The position numbers were made by a program, and so were the translations under genes. From positions 182,613 to 246,612 of the forward strand of contig CAKVMI010000001.1 in assembly GCA_934772525.1 (NCBI GenBank): a stretch of 64,000 bases of DNA, read 5' to 3'. Of the stretch, positions 8,206-41,039 are shown piece after piece. Numbering within the stretch: the first letter of the stretch is position 1; each line of letters starts with the position of its first letter. The notes beneath the pieces are model-generated. The model made no database searches, had not been told where the DNA came from, and saw only the letters and a program-made list of their open reading frames with translations. The DNA is from an uncultured Clostridia bacterium (GTDB lineage Bacteria; Bacillota; Clostridia; Christensenellales; UBA1242).

Positions 8206-8293
8206 GGATAGATAGCTTAATTGGAAAAAGCTTTTCGCTAGCACCCTAACAAAGAGTTGTTGATTGCAAGTTCGAGTCTTGCTCTATCCACCA
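8206..8293 (+). tRNA. tRNA-like gene, long-variable-arm type, isotype unresolved (non-canonical anticodon stem)
   Basis: Acceptor GGATAGA/TCTATCC. D arm GCTT-AATTGGAAA-AAGC. T arm GCAAG-TTCGAGT-CTTGC. Encoded ACCA. Extra-arm hairpin AACAA-AGAG-TTGTT. Canonical numbering gives loop CTAGCAC (anticodon AGC), but the stem TTTCG/CCTAA has two central mismatches. Confidence 0.55.
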
Positions 8294-8392
8294 AACCCCA
8301 ATGGAGATTTAATAAAAAAAGGGTTTTATTTAATGAGTATATGTAGTTTTTGTGTTTGAGGGCTGTACTAAATAAGCCAAATAACACTTTAT

Positions 8393-8468
8393 GGGGCTGT
8401 TTCTTAATGGTAGAGAACTTGTAGGAACAACAAGAAAGTTGTGCGTTCGAGTCGCACCAGTCCCGCCA
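8393..8468 (+). tRNA. tRNA-like gene, 76 nt, GAA at anticodon positions but G33 instead of U33
   Basis: Acceptor GGGGCTG/CAGTCCC. D arm TCTT-AATGGTA-GAGA. Anticodon stem CTTGT/ACAAG with loop AGGAACA. T arm GTGCG-TTCGAGT-CGCAC. Encoded GCCA. Confidence 0.6.
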
Positions 8469-11689: not shown

Positions 11690-12256
11690 ATGAGTGTAAA
11701 ACCTACAACCAATGCAACATTAAACGCCATGAAAAGAAAATCTGCTCAGACATTACCTAATAGGCCTAGTAACCAAGGTATGTCGGCGGAGCAGATTAAA
11801 AATGCGTTTTGGAAATTTGTTTTAGACAATGAAGATTCTATTGTTTCTGAAATAGCAAGAATCATAAATGAAACAAACAGCGAACTAGCAAAGAGACTTG
11901 TTAAGCTGACAAATGCTCAATTAACAGAGATTGTTAAAAATCATTTCTTAGAAAATTATGAGCTTAATAATGGCGATTTGTTTATTGCAATAGACGACGG
12001 CGATTATAAAGTTGGCCACATATATAAACTATCTACTTTGGAAAGCAACTATGGATTCACAGATGTTACTCAACAAGAACTAGATAAAAAGTTTACAAAA
12101 AACAGAACAGCTGCTAACGCAAAGAAAACTCTAACTATTGGAGAAGACGGCGAAACAATCGAAACCGATTATATCCATATTGGAGATATAAAAATACAAA
12201 AAGGGACAGAAGACGGAAGTCCTTACATAGAGTTTGTGTTCCCAGAGGAGGCATGA
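11690..12256 (+). CDS. hypothetical virion protein (188 aa)
   Basis: Starts 2 nt after the previous stop. Its stop overlaps the next start (ATGA). Confidence 0.5.
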   Translation: MSVKPTTNATLNAMKRKSAQTLPNRPSNQGMSAEQIKNAFWKFVLDNEDSIVSEIARIINETNSELAKRLVKLTNAQLTEIVKNHFLENYELNNGDLFIAIDDGDYKVGHIYKLSTLESNYGFTDVTQQELDKKFTKNRTAANAKKTLTIGEDGETIETDYIHIGDIKIQKGTEDGSPYIEFVFPEEA

Positions 12257-12732
12257 TGGGAAAATTAAAATTTAGAAAACCAAAAACCGATGAATATTTA
12301 GGTATTCCGCCAGTGGGCATAATTCTAGCATTTTCAAAAGAAGTAAGCCCAGCGCAAATTTACGGTGGGACTTGGGAACGCTGTGGTCAAGGTAAGACAC
12401 TTGTTGGTGTAAACGAAAGCGATAACGATTTTATAGCACCTACAACAGTGATTGCGGAAAACGGTAATCTTTCCGTAACTGAAAAAACTGGCGGAGAGAA
12501 GACGCATACACTTTCTGTGAGTGAACTTGCAACTCACGACCACCAGTTATTAAGATATCCTGATGCTAAGTATCAGGCTGGGTTTGGAGGCAGTACTCAT
12601 ACGGGTATTTTGTCAGAAACGGCAGCAAATGTCTTTATCGGAAACATAATGACTGATACCCGAGGTGGCAATCAACCCCATAACAACCTACAACCATATA
12701 TGACCGCATATTTTTGGCGTAGAATAGCATAA
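12253..12732 (+). CDS. tail fibre protein with phage tail-collar domain (paralog 1)
   Basis: GAGGAGG RBS. Motifs TGGEKTHTLSVSELATHDH ... GGNQPHNNLQPY ... FWRRIA match the tail-collar/MdpB-type signature. Confidence 0.7.
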   Translation: MMGKLKFRKPKTDEYLGIPPVGIILAFSKEVSPAQIYGGTWERCGQGKTLVGVNESDNDFIAPTTVIAENGNLSVTEKTGGEKTHTLSVSELATHDHQLLRYPDAKYQAGFGGSTHTGILSETAANVFIGNIMTDTRGGNQPHNNLQPYMTAYFWRRIA

Positions 12733-12746
12733 AGGAGCAAAAGATT

Positions 12747-13217
12747 ATGAGTAAACCAACAATTAAAATAACCCGTAAAAATGGCAGTTTCGCCATTAAA
12801 ACCACGGGGGGGGTAACTCTCAACGACCGAACAGTTGTTGATACAACTGGTGTGTTTGGGGCGTTCCCTATTGGCTCAATTTATTTGAGCGTAAATTCCA
12901 CAAGTCCTGCTTCACTCTTTGGTGGCACTTGGGAGCAATTAAGTGCAGACGCTTATTTTAAAATCGTCACAAGCAACGGCGGAAATCTTGGAGGTACAAG
13001 TAGTAGTCATAAGATACCTATTGGAAGTATGCCTAGCCATGTGCATACAAAGTATATGAGTGACGGAACGGAAACAAACGAGCCTTTGGTGACAAGAATA
13101 CCACACTTTGTTTGGAATAAACATGGTCAAGCATACATTGATACCGAGGCAAGCGGTGGCGGACAACCTTATTATCCATACTACTATGGTGTTTATGCTT
13201 GGATTAGAATAAATTAA
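12747..13217 (+). CDS. tail fibre protein with phage tail-collar domain (paralog 2, contains G8 tract)
   Basis: GGTSSSHKIPIGSMPSHVH ... GGGQPYYPY ... AWIRIN. The N-terminus is colinear with paralog 3. Confidence 0.7.
   Translation: MSKPTIKITRKNGSFAIKTTGGVTLNDRTVVDTTGVFGAFPIGSIYLSVNSTSPASLFGGTWEQLSADAYFKIVTSNGGNLGGTSSSHKIPIGSMPSHVHTKYMSDGTETNEPLVTRIPHFVWNKHGQAYIDTEASGGGQPYYPYYYGVYAWIRIN
12806..12813 (+). repeat. G8 homopolymer inside fibre paralog 2 (encodes GG of TTGGVTLN)
   Basis: Counted directly: ...accacGGGGGGGGtaactc... Confidence 0.95.
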
Positions 13218-13233
13218 ATTTTTGGAGGAAATT

Positions 13234-13713
13234 ATGAAAATTTACAATCAATCAAAAACTGAAATTTTAGAAAACCCAAATCTTGAATTGGGATATTTAA
13301 AAGCAGATAAAAGAGTTGTGGAAGTAGTCCCTGCTCAATCGGAAATAAAAGAGCAATTCCATTACGATTATAACGAGTATAAAAACGAAAAAGGCGAAGT
13401 TTATGGTCGTGACCGAATTAAAGTCGTTGATGTTCCTTATCAACCAGCAGTGGAAGAACACGAAGTTTTGGAAGATATACAAGTGTATATTCCATATACA
13501 GACGCCGAATTGCTAGAAAAGAAAAAACAATCTTTAAGAAATTGGCGAGAAAAATACTTCACAGTCATTGACCGTGCGGTATGGTTTGCTTGTCTTACAA
13601 GTGCCGAGCATGAAGAAGTTAAAACATTTAGACAAGCCTTACTAGATATAACGGACACATTAACATATCCAACCGTTCCTGATTGTGTTCAATCTCAAAT
13701 CAAGGAGGATTAA
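13234..13713 (+). CDS. tail fibre assembly chaperone-like protein
   Basis: GGAGG then ATG 13234. C-terminal LRNWREKYFTVIDRAVW...EEVKTFRQALLDITDTLTYPTVP resembles the YRQALRDI...P motif of fibre-assembly chaperones. Located between fibre genes. Confidence 0.5.
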   Translation: MKIYNQSKTEILENPNLELGYLKADKRVVEVVPAQSEIKEQFHYDYNEYKNEKGEVYGRDRIKVVDVPYQPAVEEHEVLEDIQVYIPYTDAELLEKKKQSLRNWREKYFTVIDRAVWFACLTSAEHEEVKTFRQALLDITDTLTYPTVPDCVQSQIKED

Positions 13714-13716
13714 GAT

Positions 13717-14185
13717 ATGTCAAGTTTGAAAATAACAAAAGTTGCCAGCGGTGTAAATATTGCGGGGGGGGGTACTAACCCTCAATAATCAACCACTTGC
13801 AGTATTGCCAGTTGGTTCAATAATTGAAACTACAAGCACGATTTCCCCAGCCCAACTTTATGGCGGAACTTGGGAAGAATTTGGCAAAGGCAAAGTGTTA
13901 GTTGGTTGTGATGCAAACGACACACAGTTTAATGAAGTGTTAAAAACTGGTGGTGAAAAGACGCATACTTTAATTGTTGGCGAAATGCCTAGCCATTGTC
14001 ACGGAATAACCAGCACGTTAGGTAACACGGATTACAATGGTATGTATCCACTCATTAAACCATTTTATCCTTCAAGCCCTTGGCAAAAAATAGATGTTGA
14101 CAATTCACAATCAAGTGGAAATGACCGACCACATAACAACCTACAACCGTATATAGTTGTTTATAGGTGGCGAAGAATAGCATAA
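13717..14185 (+). pseudogene. tail-collar fibre paralog 3, interrupted by a +1 frameshift at a G9 tract (phase-OFF state or homopolymer error)
   Basis: AAGGAGG (13702-13708) then ATG 13717. That frame stops at TAA 13786-13788 after 23 codons. The collar domain (GGEKTHTLIVGEMPSHCH ... RPHNNLQPY ... RWRRIA) continues in the +1 frame to 14185. One G fewer gives a 155-aa ORF colinear with paralog 2. Confidence 0.75.
13764..13772 (+). repeat. G9 homopolymer at the frameshift point of fibre paralog 3
   Basis: Counted directly: ...attgcGGGGGGGGGtactaacc... Confidence 0.95.
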
Positions 14186-14201
14186 AAATTTTGGAGGAAT
14201 T

Positions 14202-15251
14202 ATGAATAGAATAACAAGCTTAATCAGAAAGAATATTGGCATTATTGTTTCTATTGTGGGCTTGGCCTTACTTGTAATCCTTACCTTTGGAGATATGGGA
14301 GAATTTTTGACAGAGGAATATTGGAAGAATGTCGGTGGGAATTTATCCTCAATTAGTGCATTAACAATAGGACTTGTCTTGATTCAAACATCAATAAAGC
14401 AAGGTATAAGTGAACAAGCGTTGTCGGCCGGTTTGAATACAACAAACACAACAGAAAAGTATAAAGAACATAAAAAACTTGTTAAAGACAATCAAGAGAA
14501 ACATGTGTACTTGCCATATTTCTTAGCTATAAGGAATAAACGAGAAACTAGACGCAGAAAGCGTGAGTTTTTAGTGGATAACAATTTTACAAGTGAAAAG
14601 ATGTTGAGAACGAGTGGTAAAACAAGACTTATTAAAGCTTATGACGCTATTCAAACCAACATTACGGTAGACAGCATTAAGTGGTCCACTACGGAAATTG
14701 TTTATAACAAAAACGGAAGAATTGAAAAGCTAGAAACTTATCGAAAAAAAAGATTAGTTAAAGGATTAGTGACTGGAATTATTTTTATGATTGCTACAAC
14801 ATTCATAACTGGTGGGCTATTTCTTGATACAGCTCAGATTCCGTTTTGGCAAAAGATTATTAAACTTGTTACATATCTAATTACAATAGCCCTATCTGTA
14901 TTATTTGACATAGGCAAGAACTACGAAAAAGGTGCTTTTGGTGTTCCTAATGAATTAGAAGAAATCAATAGTATTTGGGAAGAATTTGCCAGCTGGGAAA
15001 TTCCTAGCTGGGTAAAGAAAGAGATTGAAGATAACGAAAAACAAGAAAACTTAGAAGAACAGCCGCAAGAACAAAAAGAAACGCCTCAGCAAGAATTCAA
15101 AGAGTCGATTGTTGAGGAAATAAAACCGATATTATTAGGCTTTGGAAATATAGAATCTATTAAGGAGGAAGATTATGAGTCAGACAGAGAAGAAAGCGTT
15201 GGCGCCGGAACAGATATACAAGAGAAACCAATTCAGAGCGAAGATATTTAA
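14202..15251 (+). CDS. phage membrane protein (349 aa, about 4 TM helices, acidic Q/E-rich tail)
   Basis: GGAGG RBS. Hydrophobic helices IGIIVSIVGLALLVILTF, ISALTIGLVLIQ, GLVTGIIFMIATTFITGGLF, LVTYLITIALSVLF. Confidence 0.6.
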   Translation: MNRITSLIRKNIGIIVSIVGLALLVILTFGDMGEFLTEEYWKNVGGNLSSISALTIGLVLIQTSIKQGISEQALSAGLNTTNTTEKYKEHKKLVKDNQEKHVYLPYFLAIRNKRETRRRKREFLVDNNFTSEKMLRTSGKTRLIKAYDAIQTNITVDSIKWSTTEIVYNKNGRIEKLETYRKKRLVKGLVTGIIFMIATTFITGGLFLDTAQIPFWQKIIKLVTYLITIALSVLFDIGKNYEKGAFGVPNELEEINSIWEEFASWEIPSWVKKEIEDNEKQENLEEQPQEQKETPQQEFKESIVEEIKPILLGFGNIESIKEEDYESDREESVGAGTDIQEKPIQSEDI

Positions 15252-26821: not shown

Positions 26822-27988
26822 ATGCAAACAAAAGAAATTTTAATAAAACATTTTGATTGGACGGAACAAGAAGTAATTGACAAAGCTAAAAAATTGGATT
26901 TTATTTTTAGTGAATTGTCTGAAAATGCCGTGCTTGAATTAACGCAGTTTTTTTGTGATGAATTTAAGCTGAGTGAGGATAAATTTAAAAAAATATTAAA
27001 GAAGATGCCTTCGTTATTAAATTTTACAATAGAAGGTATTAAGAAAAAAGAACAGTTTTATGAAAGTGTATATAGTATGAAACGTGAGCAGGTTAACAAG
27101 ATGGTTAAGGTGTTTCCTAGGATTTTAGGTTTATCTACCCAAAGCGTACTAGATAAGGAAAATTTTTACAAAAGTGAATTTAGAGTGACTCATGATGATT
27201 TTTGTAAGATGATAAGGTTGTCTCCTGCACTTCTAAGTTACGATACCGATAGTGTGCAAGAAAAGACGAAATTTTATGAAAGTATATTTGGCATTACCAG
27301 TATAGAATTTGGTAAGATGATGAAGGTGCATCCTGCGTTTTTAGGTTACTCTACAGATAGTGTTCAAGAAAAGGCTAAATTCTATGAAGATACATTTGGC
27401 ATTATCAGTACAGAATTTGGTAAGATGATAAAGGTGTTTCCTGCACTTCTAAGTTACGCTACCGATAGTGTGCAAGAAAAGGCGGATTTTTATGAAAGTA
27501 TATTTGGCATTACCAGTACAGAATTTGGTGAGATGATAAAGAAAGTTCCTGCATTGTTGGGTCGATCAATAGAGAGTGTACAAGAAAAAGTTAGAGAAAT
27601 CAAAGATATAAAAATCCCATCACAAGTAATAGTACAAAACCCAAGTATTTTAGCGGTTCCTAAAAACACCCTAAAACTAAGATATGTAATTTTAAGAAAT
27701 ATAGCAACAAGAGAAGAAATATTTTCATATCCTAATTGGTATATGACTAGTCAAGACAAAACATATGCAAGGGCATGTTATCTATCAGAGACGGGGAAAA
27801 AGCTTAACTGGAAAACTGTTTTGTATTCAGAAAAATTGTTTGGTAAGATGTGTGGTGTATCGAGCGATGAATTAATGGCAAAATACAAATTAACAGCTGG
27901 AAAATTTGAAAAATTAAGATCGGTCTTAGAGAAAGACGAAATAGTAGATTTTAACGATGATGAAAAAGGCGGTATAGAAGAAAAATGA
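26822..27988 (+). CDS. mTERF-like helical-repeat protein, short paralog (388 aa)
   Basis: Built from 36-aa units such as KMIKVFPALLSYATDSVQEKADFYESIFGITSTEFG. Its stop overlaps the start of the next paralog (ATGA). Confidence 0.5.
   Translation: MQTKEILIKHFDWTEQEVIDKAKKLDFIFSELSENAVLELTQFFCDEFKLSEDKFKKILKKMPSLLNFTIEGIKKKEQFYESVYSMKREQVNKMVKVFPRILGLSTQSVLDKENFYKSEFRVTHDDFCKMIRLSPALLSYDTDSVQEKTKFYESIFGITSIEFGKMMKVHPAFLGYSTDSVQEKAKFYEDTFGIISTEFGKMIKVFPALLSYATDSVQEKADFYESIFGITSTEFGEMIKKVPALLGRSIESVQEKVREIKDIKIPSQVIVQNPSILAVPKNTLKLRYVILRNIATREEIFSYPNWYMTSQDKTYARACYLSETGKKLNWKTVLYSEKLFGKMCGVSSDELMAKYKLTAGKFEKLRSVLEKDEIVDFNDDEKGGIEEK
27206..27600 (+). repeat. 3.5 tandem copies of a 108-bp coding repeat (36-aa unit)
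   Basis: Direct comparison of consecutive 108-bp blocks and their translations. Confidence 0.8.
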
Positions 27989-29463
27989 AGATAGAAAAAA
28001 TTTTAATAAAATATTTTGATTGGACGGAACAGGAAATACTTGACAAAGCTAAAAAATTGGATTTTATTTTTAGTGAATTGTCTGAAAATGCCGCGCTTGA
28101 ATTAATGCAGTTTTTTTGTGGTGAATTTCAGCTGAGTGAGGATGAATTTAAAAAAATATTAAAGAAGATGCCTTCGTTATTAAATTTTACAATAGAAGGT
28201 ATTAAGAAAAAAGAACAGTTTTATGAAAGTGTATATAGTATGAAACGTGAGCAGGTTAACAAGATGGTTAAGGTGTTTCCTAGGATTTTAGGTTTATCTA
28301 CCCAAAGCGTACTAGATAAGGAAAATTTTTACAAAAGTGAATTTAGAGTGACTCATGATGATTTTTGTAAGATGATAAAGGTGTTTCCTGTGCTTCTAGG
28401 TCTCTCTACCGATAGTTTGCAAGAAAAGGCAAAATTTTACGAAAGTACGTTTGGTATTATCCGTACAGAATTCGGTAAGATGATAAAGGTGTTTCCTTCG
28501 TTCCAAGGATTATCTACCGATAGTGTGCAAGAAAAGGCGAAATTTTATGAAGATACATTTGGTATTACCCGTACAGAATATGGTAGGATGATGAAGGTTC
28601 ATCCTGCGTTCCAAGGTCTATCTGCCGATAGTGTGCAAGAAAAGGCGAAATTTTATGAGGATACGTTTGGTATTACACGCACAGAATTCGGAAAGATGAT
28701 AAAGAAGTTTCCTATGCTTATAGGTCTATCTACTGACAGTGCGCAAGAAAAGGCAAAATTTTATGAAGATACATTTGGTATTACAAGTATGGAATTTGGT
28801 AGGATGATGAAGGTGCATCCTGCGTCCCAATGTCTATCTGCCGATAAAGTGCAAGAAAAGGCGAAATTTTATGAAGATACATTTGGTATTACACGCACAG
28901 AATTTGGTAGAATGCTGAAGGTGCATCCTGCACTTTTAAGTCCCGCTACCGATAGTGTGCAAGAAAAGGCAAAATTTTACGAAAGCACGTTTGGTATTAC
29001 CCGTACAGAATTTGGTAAGATGATAAAGAAGTCTCCTACATTGTTGGGACTATCAATAGATAGTGTACAAGAAAAAGTTAGACAAATTAAAGATATAAAA
29101 ATCCCATCACAAGTCATAGTACAAAACCCAAGTATTTTAACGGTTCCTAAAAACACCCTAAAACTAAGATATATAATTTTAAGAAATATAGCAACAAGAG
29201 AAGAAATATTTTCATATCATAATTGGTATATGATTAGTCAAGACAAAACATATGCAAGAACATGTTATCTATCAGAGACGGGGAAAAAGTTTAACTGGAA
29301 AACTGTTTTGTATTCAGAAAAAGTGTTTGGTAAGATGTGTGGTGTATCGAGCGATGAATTAATGGCAAAATACAAATTAACAGCTGGAAAAATTGAAAAA
29401 TTAAGATCGGTCTTAGAAAAAGACGAAATAGTAGATTTTAACGATGATGAAAAAAATAATTAG
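27985..29463 (+). CDS. mTERF-like helical-repeat protein, long paralog (492 aa)
   Basis: Same N- and C-terminal regions as the upstream gene, but about 6.5 copies of the 36-aa unit (KMIKVFPSFQGLSTDSVQEKAKFYEDTFGITRTEYG and similar). Confidence 0.5.
   Translation: MKIEKILIKYFDWTEQEILDKAKKLDFIFSELSENAALELMQFFCGEFQLSEDEFKKILKKMPSLLNFTIEGIKKKEQFYESVYSMKREQVNKMVKVFPRILGLSTQSVLDKENFYKSEFRVTHDDFCKMIKVFPVLLGLSTDSLQEKAKFYESTFGIIRTEFGKMIKVFPSFQGLSTDSVQEKAKFYEDTFGITRTEYGRMMKVHPAFQGLSADSVQEKAKFYEDTFGITRTEFGKMIKKFPMLIGLSTDSAQEKAKFYEDTFGITSMEFGRMMKVHPASQCLSADKVQEKAKFYEDTFGITRTEFGRMLKVHPALLSPATDSVQEKAKFYESTFGITRTEFGKMIKKSPTLLGLSIDSVQEKVRQIKDIKIPSQVIVQNPSILTVPKNTLKLRYIILRNIATREEIFSYHNWYMISQDKTYARTCYLSETGKKFNWKTVLYSEKVFGKMCGVSSDELMAKYKLTAGKIEKLRSVLEKDEIVDFNDDEKNN
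28369..29090 (+). repeat. 6.5 tandem copies of the 108-bp coding repeat
   Basis: Direct comparison of consecutive 108-bp blocks. Confidence 0.8.
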
Positions 29464-30535: not shown

Positions 30536-30619
30536 TAATTTTTTAGGAGTAGATAATTTACTCCTAAAAAAATGCCATTAAAACATACCAAATCGGTAGG
30601 AGATATAAAGGAGAATATT

Positions 30620-31795
30620 ATGATTTATTTAGATAATAACGCGACAACAAAAGCTGATGAAGAAGTTGTAAAAGCGATGCTACCATATTTAACAGATAAC
30701 TATGGAAATCCATCAAGTATTTATAAAATTGGTAGAGAAAACAAAAGGGTAATTGAGTCTGTTCGTGGTACGATTGCTAAAACTTTTAACTGTTTACCTG
30801 AAGAGATTTATTTTACATCGGGTGGAACTGAGAGTGACAACACTGCAATTCGTGGTATTGCGTACGCCTATAAAAATAAGGGGAATCACATAATTACATC
30901 AAAAATTGAACACCCAGCAGTTCTTGATACCTTACATAAACTAGAGAAAGAAGGTTTTGAAGTAACTTATGTTGGTGTAGATAGTGAAGGTATAATAAAT
31001 TTGGATGAATTAAAAAGTGCCATTAAGCCTACTACCACTTTAATAACCGTAATGTATGCAAATAATGAAATTGGAGTAATTGAGCCTATTGACGAAATCG
31101 GAAAAATTGCAAAAGAGAATGGTATAATTTTCCACACCGATGCAGTGCAAGCGGTGGGGTCAATTAGGATTGATGTACAAAAATCTAACATAGATAGTTT
31201 GAGTGTTTCGGCGCATAAGTTCCATGGTCCTAAAGGCGTTGGAGTGTTGTATGTAAAAAAGTCGGTTAGATTTAATAAATTTATTGAAGGTGGGCATCAA
31301 GAAAGAAATAAGCGTGCGGGCACCGAAAATGTTGCGGGAATTGTAGGTCTTGGCAAGGCGTTAGAACTAGCATACATTGACTTTGATGAGAAAAACGCAA
31401 AAATTAAAGCACTCCGTGACCATTTTATGACGGAAATACTTACTAAAATTCCGTACACAAGGTTAAATGGAAGCATTGAACATAGGCTTGTTGGCAACTG
31501 CAATATTTCATTCAAGTTTATTGAAGGTGAAGGTATATTATTAAATTTGGATAACCTTGGCATTTGTGCGTCATCGGGTAGTGCTTGTACATCGGGTTCA
31601 TTAGATCCATCGCACGTACTACTTGCAATAGGGCTAGACCACGCAACGGCACATGGGTCGGTTAGAATTTCTATAAGTAAGTACAACACTTTAGAAGAAA
31701 TTGACTATGTAATTAATGCGTTAATTGAAATTGTGGCAAGGCTTAGAAGTATGTCACCACTATATGAAGAATTTTTGGAAGGAGAAAATAAGTAA
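30620..31795 (+). CDS. nifS: cysteine desulfurase (NifS/IscS class)
   Basis: AAGGAG RBS then ATG 30620 (MIYLDNNATT). PLP-lysine motif SVSAHKFHGPKG. Active-site loop SSGSACTSG. Confidence 0.9.
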   Translation: MIYLDNNATTKADEEVVKAMLPYLTDNYGNPSSIYKIGRENKRVIESVRGTIAKTFNCLPEEIYFTSGGTESDNTAIRGIAYAYKNKGNHIITSKIEHPAVLDTLHKLEKEGFEVTYVGVDSEGIINLDELKSAIKPTTTLITVMYANNEIGVIEPIDEIGKIAKENGIIFHTDAVQAVGSIRIDVQKSNIDSLSVSAHKFHGPKGVGVLYVKKSVRFNKFIEGGHQERNKRAGTENVAGIVGLGKALELAYIDFDEKNAKIKALRDHFMTEILTKIPYTRLNGSIEHRLVGNCNISFKFIEGEGILLNLDNLGICASSGSACTSGSLDPSHVLLAIGLDHATAHGSVRISISKYNTLEEIDYVINALIEIVARLRSMSPLYEEFLEGENK

Positions 31796-37136: not shown

Positions 37137-40100
37137 ATGAAGAAGATTAAGGAATTTTTTGGTAAGCTTTTTTCAAATAGAGTGCTAATTTTACCACTAA
37201 TAATAGGAATTTGTCTATTTGCAGTGGTAAATTTTAGTGTGTTTAAAAAGCCTGGAAATACAAAGCCAAACGATAGTAATCAAGTAAATATTGACGACGT
37301 GATTATTTATCCAGATAGAGCAAATTCTGGTATGTTTACCTACGAAAGAATTGGTGGGGGTTGTGTAATAACCGGTATTAAAAATGGCGTTCAAATAGAT
37401 AAATACGCCTTTGTTATTTTGCCAGAAACCGCCGTTAGTGGTAAGGTACTTGGAATTGCCGATGAAGCATTTAAAAACACCGCAATTAAAGGTGTTGTTA
37501 TTCCGTCTTCAATTATGACTATTGGAGAATCGGCGTTTGAAAATTGTACCGAATTGAAGTCAGTAAAATTTTTGAGTAAAAGCGAAAACACTCTGGCTTC
37601 TACTAAAATTGGAAGCAATGCTTTTAAAAATTGTACAAAACTAAAAGAAGTCACATTAAGTAACGCGGTTGATGAAGTTACGGAAAACGCTTTTGCTGGA
37701 ACAACTATTGAAACCCTTATTTTGGAAAGTAATAAATTCTATTTGGCGGTTACCGATAACGGCTCTATTGGTGGAGCGGTAAGTGGAAGTACTGCAATTT
37801 TGACCTTGGCAGAGCAAAACGGCGAGATAATTGATGATGGGACTAATGATTATTTAAAGTATTTTTATAATCTTAGTGAAAGGGTTGTAAATAATGTAAC
37901 TTTTTTGGAATATACTTTAAAAGGGGACATTATTACTATTAATTTAAACCTTTCGGGCGGAACACTTTCAAGTGGAGTTGAAGGAGTAATTTACCGAACA
38001 AAAATCTCCGTTGTTAAGGTACTAGATAGCGAAGGAAACATCCAATTAAAAGTTTTGGATGATAGCGGAAAACTTGTAAATTTGGTTGATGAAACAATAA
38101 AACTACCACTTGTTGAAAAACTAGGATATTGGTTTAAAGAGTGGAGAACGGAAGATGGTTTGGTTTACACTAAAATTGATAAAAACATTAGTGAAGATAT
38201 AACGCTAAATGCTATATTTTTGCCACGTCTTATATTTATAAATTACGATTTGAATGGTGGAACTAATGATAGTAGAAATTTAAGCGAGGCAAGTGACGGG
38301 TTAACTTATAGAGTTGGCGGGGAAGAACGAGTTTTGTATCCTGCAACAAAGGAATACTCAATGTTTGTTGGCTGGTATATAGATGCCGATTTCAAAACCA
38401 AGATAGATTCTATTAACGATGATATTTTTAGATACATTATTTACTCAGACGCTGGAAAACCAGAAAGCGAAATAGAAAAGAAAAAAGTTGTTACACTTTA
38501 TGCAAAGTTCGAAACAATCCTAATCATTAATGGTGGGGTGGTTACTGGCGTAAATAGTTTAGCAAGTGGACTTACCGAAATTGTTATTCCACAAAGTGTA
38601 AATGGTGTAACTATTACAAGTATTGCTGATAGTGCGATGGAAAATATGTATTCGTTACGAAAGTTGACCATTAGTGCTAGGCTTACTAGCATTGGTAAAA
38701 ACGCATTTAGAAATTGCTATATGTTAAGTGAAATTAATTATAGCGGTGCGGGGCTATACACAATTGGAGAGTCTGCATTTGAAAATTGCATAAATTTAGG
38801 CGGGTTTACAATTGCAAATTCGGTAATAACTGTTGGTAAAAATGCTTTTAGTGGTTGTATGAACCTTAAAAGTGTTGAATATGAAAGTGGTTCATTAATT
38901 ACAAAAATTGAAGACAATACCTTTAATGGTTGTAGGCTTCTTGAGAGTTTAAAATTGCCGTCGGGGGTTGTTGAATTTGGTGAAAACGCATTTTTAAATT
39001 GCGAAAAACTTAGAGATGTCACCTTTTTAAATGTTTCGTTCCAAGTTCTTGGAAACTATGCTTTTAGCGGAATTAAAGGTTTGACAAATATTACACTAGA
39101 CGGAACTCTTGAAAGTTTAGGCGAAGGAGTTTTTGCGGGGTGTTCTGGACTTAAAAAAGTTAGTTTTGTAAACGGCTTTAAGTTAACCACAATTCCTAAA
39201 AATACTTTTTATGGAGCAACAAGTTTACAAAGTGTTATTTTACCTGAAAGCGTGAAGGTAATTGAAGATAATGCGTTTAATAATTGTGCCACCTTAACTA
39301 GTGTGAGCTTTGGTGATGGTATTACGAAAATTGGTAGTGCTAGTTTTAAAAACACCGCCCTATCAAAAATTGATTTACCAAAAACTTGCACCGTAATTGG
39401 GTGTGATGCATTTAGTGGGTGCAACCTAAAATCGGTGGAAGTTGAAAGTTTAAATGGTTGGGAAGCAAGTGGTGTATTTTTGGAACTTGAAAGTAAGTAT
39501 GACTTATTATACGCTTTAATTAAGGGTGCTAGTTTAACCTACACTGAGCCATTTGTTATGGATGAAAATGGGTATATCACTAAAGTTAAAGCAAATTATT
39601 CATTATATATAATTGGTCAAAATGTTAAGGGTATAGTTGCTGGCGTTTTTGACGGAAATAATAATTTTAGGTTACTATTTGAAAATGAGTCGGGGTGGTT
39701 TTCGGAAATCTCTGAACTTAAAATAAATAACTCAAATGGAAATGCTGAAATTATAGAAATGCTAAGAACATCGACTATTATGAATGAACAAGCCTTGGTT
39801 ATTGAAAAAGGTAGAGTAGTAGGTTCAACTACTGCATTAAATAAAATTTCTATCTTAATTATTCCAGAAGGTGTAACTGTTATTTGTTCGGGTGCAATTA
39901 CTGGTAGTGAAACTATTACAAAAATTGTTCTTCCTACAACGCTTATAAAAATTGAAGTGGGGGCTTTTGCAAGTCTTACAAACCTTGAAAGTGTTGAATT
40001 TTTGGATGAGTTGTATTGGGGGGATGCTAGAGAGAGTGTAAACTTAGAAGATTTTTCTTTGAATGTGCAAAAGGTACAAGAATTAACTAGTGATTTAATA

Positions 40101-41039
40101 AAGACCGAAGTCTTTGAGTTTAGAGGTAATGAACTTATAGGACTTACCGATGTTGGTAAGGGAATGATTGAACTAATAGTACCTAGATTTGTTACGGTTA
40201 TTGGAAGTTATGCTTTTGATGGCTCTATTGCTAGAACAATCACCATTAGTGCGGGTGTTCGTCAACTTAATGAATTTGCCTTTGTTGGGGCGAGTGAACT
40301 TGAAAATGTTATATTTAGTGAAAACCCTACGCTTGAATCTATCGGCAAATATTGTTTTAAAGACCTTAAAAAATTAAAGTCATTTGTAATTCCTGGCGGT
40401 GTAACAACTTTAGGAGAAGGAATATTTAGCGGTTGCGTTGGAATTACTCAAATTGACCTTGGCGGAATAAACTGCATTACCGACGAAATGTTTATGAATT
40501 GTTATAATCTTTTAGCGGTGACCGGTGGACAAAATGTAGAAACTATTGGTATAAAAGCATTCATTTATTGTGTAAACTTAAAAAGTTTTGAATTTGGAAA
40601 CGCATTAAAAGCTATTGGTGCACACGCATTTTATTCGTGCGTATCGCTTAAAGAGTTAAACCTAAATGAAGGATTATTAACAATTGGGAAGGATGCATTT
40701 AATGGTTGTGAAAATATAGTTGGAGTGGTGGCTCTTCCTAATAGTTTACGAGAAATTGGCAGTAATTGTTTCTCAAATTGTTTTAAATTAACCACTATAA
40801 TTTTTGGTGAACAAATTGAAAAAATTGGTGCTTATTTAATTTTTAACAACAACGGGAAAACAAGCGTTTCATCAATTATAATTAAAAGCGGTCTAGTTTT
40901 TAGTTTGTGTGATAATTTAAGCGGTATGGTGTTGCAAGACGGAATAGTTATAGGCGAAGGTGATTTTGTTTCGGGCGAAAGGCTTGCTCATTGCTTTAGA
41001 GAGTTGCTATATAATTACGATTGGGTGAGAGAAAAGTAA
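37137..41039 (+). CDS. BspA-type leucine-rich-repeat surface protein (1300 aa), N-terminal membrane anchor
   Basis: N-terminal TM ILPLIIGICLFAVVNFSVF. Many units of the form IPSSIMTIGESAFENCTELKSVKF (LRR_5/BspA pattern). Confidence 0.8.
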   Translation: MKKIKEFFGKLFSNRVLILPLIIGICLFAVVNFSVFKKPGNTKPNDSNQVNIDDVIIYPDRANSGMFTYERIGGGCVITGIKNGVQIDKYAFVILPETAVSGKVLGIADEAFKNTAIKGVVIPSSIMTIGESAFENCTELKSVKFLSKSENTLASTKIGSNAFKNCTKLKEVTLSNAVDEVTENAFAGTTIETLILESNKFYLAVTDNGSIGGAVSGSTAILTLAEQNGEIIDDGTNDYLKYFYNLSERVVNNVTFLEYTLKGDIITINLNLSGGTLSSGVEGVIYRTKISVVKVLDSEGNIQLKVLDDSGKLVNLVDETIKLPLVEKLGYWFKEWRTEDGLVYTKIDKNISEDITLNAIFLPRLIFINYDLNGGTNDSRNLSEASDGLTYRVGGEERVLYPATKEYSMFVGWYIDADFKTKIDSINDDIFRYIIYSDAGKPESEIEKKKVVTLYAKFETILIINGGVVTGVNSLASGLTEIVIPQSVNGVTITSIADSAMENMYSLRKLTISARLTSIGKNAFRNCYMLSEINYSGAGLYTIGESAFENCINLGGFTIANSVITVGKNAFSGCMNLKSVEYESGSLITKIEDNTFNGCRLLESLKLPSGVVEFGENAFLNCEKLRDVTFLNVSFQVLGNYAFSGIKGLTNITLDGTLESLGEGVFAGCSGLKKVSFVNGFKLTTIPKNTFYGATSLQSVILPESVKVIEDNAFNNCATLTSVSFGDGITKIGSASFKNTALSKIDLPKTCTVIGCDAFSGCNLKSVEVESLNGWEASGVFLELESKYDLLYALIKGASLTYTEPFVMDENGYITKVKANYSLYIIGQNVKGIVAGVFDGNNNFRLLFENESGWFSEISELKINNSNGNAEIIEMLRTSTIMNEQALVIEKGRVVGSTTALNKISILIIPEGVTVICSGAITGSETITKIVLPTTLIKIEVGAFASLTNLESVEFLDELYWGDARESVNLEDFSLNVQKVQELTSDLIKTEVFEFRGNELIGLTDVGKGMIELIVPRFVTVIGSYAFDGSIARTITISAGVRQLNEFAFVGASELENVIFSENPTLESIGKYCFKDLKKLKSFVIPGGVTTLGEGIFSGCVGITQIDLGGINCITDEMFMNCYNLLAVTGGQNVETIGIKAFIYCVNLKSFEFGNALKAIGAHAFYSCVSLKELNLNEGLLTIGKDAFNGCENIVGVVALPNSLREIGSNCFSNCFKLTTIIFGEQIEKIGAYLIFNNNGKTSVSSIIIKSGLVFSLCDNLSGMVLQDGIVIGEGDFVSGERLAHCFRELLYNYDWVREK

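Follow-up and report, generated by a model that had tools for sequence, protein, structure and literature searches.

What keeps a pure run of nine Gs inside a phage fibre gene that this very run throws out of frame? The question arises from a 64,000-nucleotide (nt) stretch of DNA of an uncultured Clostridia bacterium (GenBank assembly GCA_934772525.1, contig CAKVMI010000001.1, positions 182,613 to 246,612 of the forward strand). We refer to this whole 64-kb stretch as the window. A phage structural module occupies its left 25 kb and includes a cassette with three small paralogous fibre genes. Two of them, here called gene 2 and gene 3, encode a Gly-Gly pair with an uninterrupted run of eight (G8) and nine (G9) Gs respectively. 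An earlier note on this DNA had proposed slipped-strand phase variation of the encoded proteins, and the comparison with other genomes supports that proposal: run lengths differ between orthologs, all three frames are found and copies that are out of frame are under selection. We consider it probable that the two genes are fibre-tip genes that switch at the DNA level by slipped-strand phase variation.

The effect of the tracts on the reading frame is direct. In gene 2, G8 spans codons 20-23 and the gene is open from end to end. In gene 3, G9 spans codons 16-19 and the sequence across it reads GCG GGG GGG GGT ACT AAC CCT CAA TAA. As the earlier note had read it, the frame that follows the strong ribosome-binding site (RBS) of gene 3 stops after 23 codons and the collar domain continues in the +1 frame (Table 1). 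Removing one G or adding two yields an intact protein of 155/156 amino acids (aa). The 155-aa protein that had been expected from one G fewer is obtained on computation, and this predicted G8 product exists elsewhere, in another sample, at 96 % identity. We call a gene ON when its tract leaves the full-length frame open and OFF when it does not; OFF frames terminate 1-12 codons past the tract.

The two tracts occupy homologous positions. The proteins of gene 2 and gene 3 are 31 % identical (E 4e-14), in keeping with their earlier description as paralogs, and the tracts fall on aligned Gly-Gly residues. The earlier note had also ascribed a tail-collar motif to both. A related domain is indeed present, but its family is PF21939 (Gp10_C) and not the one named there. 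The three paralogs score 72.4, 45.1 and 89.3 bits for PF21939 against a gathering cut-off of 27, and each of them has matches among the PHROG tail-fibre families and to T4 gp10 chains of the PDB (phmmer E 8e-8). The collar open reading frame (ORF) of gene 3 is identical to a database protein (P0121). Paralog 1, the third member of the set, is without the N-terminal extension and hairpin of the other two and is presumed to be made constitutively. Tract-free orthologs hold the first cassette slot in the relatives L205, L207, L211 and L213.

Table 1. Positions in the window of the fibre cassette genes, their start signals and G tracts, and of the tRNA gene at the right edge of the phage module
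Feature	Position	Strand	Details
Paralog 1, 159-aa Gp10_C collar protein	12253..12732	+	Pfam PF21939 E 9.6e-20; no poly-G tract
RBS of gene 2	12732..12737	+	AAGGAG; direct sequence reading
Gene 2 (paralog 2), 156-aa collar-domain fibre protein	12747..13217	+	PF21939 E 2.5e-11; ON with G8
G8 tract of gene 2	12806..12813	+	Gly-Gly codons 21-22, ACG GGG GGG GTA
159-aa protein	13234..13713	+	Weak match to tail-fibre assembly (phrog_4628, phrog_8716, E ~8e-5)
RBS of gene 3	13702..13708	+	AAGGAGG; direct sequence reading
Gene 3 (paralog 3), 5' part, OFF product of 23 codons	13717..13788	+	ATG 13717, TAA 13786-13788
G9 tract of gene 3	13764..13772	+	One G over; G8 or G11 is in frame
Gene 3 collar body, +1 frame	13760..14185	+	PF21939 E 5.7e-25; 141-aa ORF from TTG 13760 in gene calls
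tRNA-Ser	24727-24817	minus	At the switch from phage to bacterial genes

Runs of this kind are not expected by chance. The window has a G+C content of 34 % and, as had been noted before, the two tracts are the only G/C runs longer than six in all of its 64 kb. It contains two G6 runs and no C run of six or longer. Base composition predicts about 0.18 runs of G8 or longer and about 0.04 runs of G9 or longer. Within the phage genes GGG accounts for 21 of 484 Gly codons (4.3 %), and GGG-GGG encodes two of the 30 Gly-Gly pairs, which are just the two tract sites. The isolation of the runs, the rarity of the GGG codon and the retention of the run in both 31 %-identical paralogs together argue against a chance origin.

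Tract length differs between close relatives. Two IMG/VR contigs (3300045988_076669 and 3300029305_011901) each encode an 852-aa protein 98 % identical to the one in the window and carry a fibre cassette in the same slot. The first has three tract genes, A (G10, ON), B (G9, OFF) and C (G9, OFF), and the second has A' (G9, OFF) and C' (G10, ON). A and A' share identical flanks and C and C' almost identical ones, so the two contigs hold each of these genes in opposite states.

We also searched a large protein collection with the restored protein of gene 3. The resulting 90 %-identity cluster has 12 distinct members and contains all three frame states. Five members of 141 aa correspond to the G9 OFF form and include the exact ORF of the window, three of 155/156 aa start with MSSLKITKVASGVNIAGG and are in frame (ON), and the remaining four, of 167/168 aa, are calls of the third frame, the other OFF state. 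The same three length classes recur in a sister cluster that has the same N-terminus and a different variable loop. At the DNA level, the window and five other assemblies have gene 3 with the flanks tgtaaatattgc and tactaaccctca in the G9 OFF state, and one assembly has it as G8 ON. It is G13 ON in the syntenic relative L205, and the protein variants of further orthologs imply G10, G11 and G13. Gene 2 orthologs with identical flanks have G6 (OFF) or G8, G11 and G13 (ON), and a B-type gene, again with identical flanks, has G7, G8 and G11 (OFF) or G9 (ON). Across orthologs with identical flanks the range is G6 to G13, with all three frames represented.

One protein, P0133 in the cluster of P0002, reads MRWGG, which corresponds to a G-to-T change within the run. 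Judged by its sequence, it may be a natural allele whose tract is interrupted and stabilised. We also considered the rule that each genome has exactly one of its tract genes ON. It fits the first five genomes, a pattern with a back-of-envelope chance of about 0.01 under independence and about 0.06 given at least one ON gene, and it fails on L205 and L213, which have two ON, and on L211, which has none. We rejected it.

While its length varies, the run itself is kept. The earlier note had pointed to the Gly-Gly codons of related phages, where mixed codons without a tract would speak against switching. Instead, every close relative (L161/L001, L162, L204-L215 and L216-L220) has a pure G run at the hinge position, as do more distant gut-phage arrays, and a relative at 49 % identity has G9 at the same codon position. 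The protein itself has no need of the run, since relative L221 has Leu-Gly-Lys-Asp-Val in place of Gly-Gly and no tract. Relatives of the 852-aa protein at 34-61 % identity (L163-L180, from IMG/VR, metagenomes and Clostridia metagenome-assembled genomes) have no G run of seven or more and no collar genes downstream. The cassette is therefore lineage-specific, and these distant relatives are uninformative on the tract. Megablast of positions 11690-15251 against 50,697 GenBank phages gave no match, an exact search of IMG/VR for the gene 3 tract flanks gave none either, and exact-protein look-ups of paralogs 1 and 2 of the window returned no record.

The closest pairs identify the tracts as hot spots for insertions and deletions (indels). 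The contig pair 094619/100652 (L010/L200) carries an array of five tract genes and is 99.9 % identical over 7817 nt. Besides 3 substitutions, only 3 indels separate the two contigs, each of them within a poly-G tract; one genome has paralog 1 of the array ON, the other has paralog 4 ON. A second pair, L188 and L189, is 98.9 % identical over a 3128-nt alignment with a single indel, which is within a G tract. By comparison, A/T runs of seven or more show no length variation in any of the pairwise comparisons.

The tract in this second pair is G10 and in frame in L188 (9978-9987), and G9 and out of frame in L189 (2609-2617). It is located between a 472-aa fibre shaft and a C-terminal collar domain, an arrangement in which the switch would take off just the tip of a long fibre. 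Another tract about 850 nt downstream also differs, G9 versus G10.

What the proteins of the tract genes do is suggested by several features. Their assignment to fibres is based on the Gp10_C domain, the PHROG tail-fibre families, the T4 gp10 structures in the PDB, the position of the genes and a hypervariable loop. This loop of 35-50 residues lies between the conserved motifs EMPSHxH and HNNLQPY, and near-identical N- and C-terminal parts are found around wholly different inserts. From this pattern the insert looks like a swappable specificity loop. Its location is 13990-14130 in gene 3 and 13040-13170 in gene 2 (columns 101-150 of alignment A1). The beta-hairpin modelled at the N-terminus probably docks the protein to the tail.

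If OFF copies were dead genes, their collar frame should be free to change. Pairwise ratios of nonsynonymous to synonymous substitution rates (dN/dS) of the collar-frame ORF are 0.09-0.37, with dS up to 0.14, and this includes pairs in which both copies are OFF. No OFF copy has a second lesion. Such purifying selection indicates that the genes have been expressed through most of their history, as would be expected from reversible switching or, with less likelihood, from expression in spite of the frameshift.

A number of observations weigh against phase variation. Every length difference described above is between assemblies from different samples, and the window's own lineage offers no genome pair that differs solely at the tract, the available pairs being 2-4 % diverged. 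Gene 3 is in the same G9 OFF state in five lineages that differ by 1-8 % around the tract. A highly unstable and unselected tract would be expected to vary more. Three explanations offer themselves: a favoured OFF state, a rather stable G9, or expression of G9 by recoding. In addition, some copies of gene 3 have a 2-nt TA insertion just 3' of the tract (tactataaccct versus tactaaccct; L204:1235-1247, L209:199-211, L211:3090-3102), and in this allele G9 is ON and G8 is OFF. The insertion looks like a compensatory fix and hints at a long-lasting G9. The host DNA in the window (about 39 kb) contains no further G/C run longer than six and thus gives no sign of general poly-G switching by the host. 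On the protein side, the small fibre-tip proteins are regarded as probably receptor-binding on the grounds of homology. The AlphaFold monomer of gene 2 is mediocre (predicted local distance difference test, pLDDT, 66), with low confidence at the beta-hairpin of residues 6-19 that directly precedes Gly-Gly, and the best Foldseek match, T4 gp10 (2FKK), is weak (E 0.013, template modelling score, TM, 0.24).

Homopolymers of about nine or more can undergo transcriptional as well as translational slippage, and recoding is the likeliest of the alternatives. Slippage of the RNA polymerase, or a +1 slip of the ribosome, at G9 would yield some full-length gene 3 protein, and the run would set a low level of expression. 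This would account for the retention of exactly G9 in five diverged lineages, for purifying selection even between OFF copies and for a TA-insertion allele that exactly compensates G9. The G run is also predicted to pair with a downstream ACCCUC in the fold (z = -2.6). However, orthologs occupy all three frames and in-frame alleles are common, whereas programmed sites normally keep one fixed arrangement. The OFF genes would moreover need opposite shifts, +1 in some and -1 in others: since OFF states with one nt over and with one nt short both occur, no single directional frameshift accounts for them. The hairpin 3' of the tract is weak (-10.8 kcal/mol, z = -1.7), and the shift site has no slow or stop codon, the TAA following five codons on. 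We judge recoding to be an improbable explanation of the locus and unlikely as the main route to the protein; it could still be a source of leakiness beside DNA switching.

Neutral decay is less probable again. G runs are mutation-prone spots, and the frameshift in gene 3 might be an ordinary inactivation in a degrading prophage. Gene 3 is OFF in 9 of the 12 distinct cluster sequences, relative L211 has all three of its tract genes OFF with short tracts (G6, G7 and G8), and the element is a prophage embedded in host DNA. Decay is nevertheless hard to reconcile with OFF copies that have no second lesion and a dN/dS as low as that given above. Pure runs have been kept in paralogs that are 31 % identical and whose synonymous sites are long saturated, although GGG is rare and a synonymous interruption would stabilise the gene. 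The layout is found again on about 19 contigs of IMG/VR and on two different phage backbones, and the share of ON copies is near one third, as expected under free switching.

The earlier note had raised a plain assembly error, in which the true length is G8 and gene 3 is intact. G9 is hard to call on long-read platforms, but G9 with identical flanks is present in five other lineages that were assembled independently by ENA and Logan, and two assemblers recovered the same tract lengths from one run (ERR2136666). A/T runs of 7-8 inside the long ORFs of the window are all in frame, so the assembly has no general homopolymer problem. The tract is in any case conserved and polymorphic, whatever its length in this genome. 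With independent lineages and assemblers in agreement, an error in the homopolymer is very unlikely. Finally, it is scarcely credible that translation of gene 3 starts at TTG 13760 and yields a 141-aa protein without the N-terminal peptide, as automatic annotation has it and as the open ORF 13760..14185 reported by gene callers would allow, since no GGAGG-like site lies 5' of this TTG, as already remarked in the earlier note, a perfect AAGGAGG serves ATG 13717, the TTG would fall inside the G run and in-frame orthologs all start at the upstream ATG with a conserved MSSLKITKVASGVNI peptide.

Slipped-strand phase variation remains the reading that we prefer, and we propose that it works as follows. 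A switchable gene would be made of about 20 N-terminal residues that form the hairpin, a Gly-Gly(-Gly) hinge encoded by an uninterrupted stretch of Gs, and a collar similar to the C-terminal domain of T4 gp10 with its hypervariable loop. Slipped-strand mispairing during DNA replication would lead to the gain or loss of a G in the run, presumably at a rate sufficient for switching within a population. One residue class of tract length modulo 3 would give the full protein (ON) and the two other classes an early stop (OFF). In this genome paralog 1 would always be made, gene 2 would be ON and gene 3 OFF. Assuming that the proteins are present in the virion, a lysogen or phage population would produce virions with differing sets of fibre tips and so spread the risk over variable host surfaces.

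The same design is found in other gut phages. Scanning IMG/VR for a G8 run with the collar motifs P-x-G-S and G-G-x-W downstream returned 23 stretches, on about 19 contigs, with the layout of N-terminal peptide, poly-G and collar. We tentatively suggest, as a possibility short of an even case, that hairpin, poly-G hinge and collar form a portable combinatorial host-range switch that is widespread in gut Firmicutes phages. Arrays of 2-5 fibre-tip genes, switching independently and each with its own hypervariable loop, would then move between unrelated backbones.

Copies of the gene 3 cassette that are 95-98 % identical are located in a different temperate-phage backbone (L207, L208, L211, L213 and L214, from ENA and Logan gut metagenome contigs), with a gene for a 569-aa protein upstream of the cassette and an rve-family integrase downstream. 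As the cassette occurs on two backbones, the fibre module moves between phages. The L207 phage adjoins cysteine desulfurase and NifU genes; a cysteine desulfurase is also present in the bacterial part of the window (30572-31795). Another arrangement is seen in L084, L085 (4600-5000), L086 (3650-4100 and 6816-6989) and L088, where three G8-G11 tracts are spaced about 100-200 nt apart. These tracts lie directly 3' of a fibre gene of 744-750 aa and precede arrays of small fibre-tip-like genes, several with collar motifs. Their lengths vary among related contigs, and L085 and L086 derive from IMG/VR contigs of 125-133 kb. In Streptococcus Javan prophages the collar domain forms the C-terminus of a fibre gene of about 600 aa, between the tail lysin and the holin, and has no tract.

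The surroundings of the cassette place it in a prophage. The phage module has the gene order terminase, portal, major head protein, 852-aa virion protein, 188-aa protein and fibre cassette, and downstream of the cassette are membrane proteins and a 2461-aa polyvalent protein. The 159-aa assembly-like protein is directly 5' of the last collar gene in all related cassettes (L001, L204, L205, L207, L211, L213, L215 and L216). Beyond the tRNA-Ser gene, which may mark the prophage attachment site, the genes are bacterial and include a cysteine desulfurase, an iron alcohol dehydrogenase, a BspA-type leucine-rich-repeat protein, an ABC transporter and gyrA. The nearest named relatives of this gyrA come from uncultured Clostridia. 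Because the phage module adjoins bacterial genes, we take the element for a prophage, or at least for a region of phage origin, in the genome of a gut Clostridia bacterium. There is no invertase, reverse transcriptase or template repeat adjoining the fibre cassette. We excluded a concatemer or repeat artefact in the window.

Other features of the window are recorded here for completeness. The polyvalent protein (17242-24627) is encoded by the final gene of the phage module, has an ADP-ribosyltransferase domain (PF18760, residues 849-972) and is probably injected or virion-internal. Genes for tRNA-Ala and tRNA-Phe lie within the structural module (8206-8468). In the host part, the BspA-type surface protein (37137-41039, 1300 aa) has a Listeria-Bacteroides repeat and is a possible adhesin. 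Two neighbouring bacterial genes at 26822-29463, of 388 and 492 aa, consist of tandem repeats of 108 nt (36 aa) and have matches to Pfam mTERF (E 2e-49 and 9e-47); their initial 300 nt are 94 % identical to each other. The mTERF family is mostly known from organelles and hence unusual in a bacterium.

For most gut phages the largest gap in knowledge is host range. Fibre genes with a frameshift are regularly recorded as pseudogenes or with false internal starts, as has happened to gene 3 in public databases. If our reading is correct, one prophage genome encodes several adsorption phenotypes, and both host-range prediction from a single consensus and the design of phage therapy would be misled. 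Poly-G phase variation of receptor-binding proteins would extend beyond one genus of Campylobacter phages to temperate phages of Gram-positive gut anaerobes. If the switch is portable as well, a lysogen population would release virions with many combinations of tips, and poly-G switches would be general in the gut virome and visible in metagenomic read pile-ups. The design appears widespread, and the claim can be tested directly in existing metagenomic reads.

Several known systems resemble this locus in part. Bacterial contingency loci with poly-G/C tracts, such as those in surface genes of Campylobacter, Haemophilus and Neisseria, share the 5' homopolymer, the frame shift on a change of one unit, the early stop in the OFF state and an effect on proteins of surface interaction. 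They act on the cell surface, whereas the present locus is phage-borne and acts on the virion. Phages Mu and P1, with their invertible G/C segments, and BPP-1, with its diversity-generating retroelement (Mtd), serve the same purpose of alternative receptor-binding tips in one population. Their mechanisms, site-specific inversion in Mu and P1 and mutagenic retrohoming in BPP-1, differ from poly-G tracts. The collar domain is homologous to the C-terminal domain of T4 gp10 (PF21939; PDB 2FKK and 5HX2; Pfam E 1e-11 to 6e-25). T4 gp10 is a 602-aa baseplate wedge protein without a tract, while in the present cassette the domain has little more than an N-terminal peptide of 20 residues in front of it.

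Slippage at homopolymers has also been described for genes of coliphages T2 and T4, as contingency loci with a proposed role in bet-hedging (Gomez, Barrick and Waters 2025 preprint, PMC12633550). Those loci are mostly short A/T runs (at least 6) in genes such as agt and rIIA, and repeats are under-represented in the tail-fibre genes (PMC12633550). The present phage differs in that long G runs are confined to the fibre genes of an AT-rich genome.

The closest precedent is that of the Campylobacter Fletchervirus phages (PMC8713573, PMC12633550), so that the earlier description of such switching as rarely documented in phage fibres is a fair one. As summarised in those two papers, Fletchervirus phages have up to four receptor-binding proteins, two of which are switched by G7-11 tracts (Sorensen et al. 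2021, Cell Rep 35:109214). On that summary, both systems have several fibre genes, of which some are constitutive and others switchable, the state of a switchable gene depends on its tract length, and a mixed phage population is proposed. Fletchervirus phages are lytic and belong to the myoviruses, and their Gram-negative host has poly-G switches of its own, while the phages described here are prophages or temperate phages of Gram-positive gut Clostridia. The present tract lies at a fixed hinge of a small (about 155 aa) portable module. With gene 3 as the query, tblastn matched 346 of 50,697 phage records; the organism names listed for them are mainly Microbacterium, Streptococcus, Vibrio, Arthrobacter and Lactococcus phages, with no Campylobacter phage among them. 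Judged by the names listed, these proteins are unrelated to Fletchervirus RBP1-4, and the two systems are alike in logic, not by descent. Full-text literature searches did not turn up poly-G fibre switches in phages of gut Firmicutes. Poly-G contingency of this kind has so far been demonstrated only in Campylobacter phages, and the same logic now appears in prophages of gut Firmicutes.

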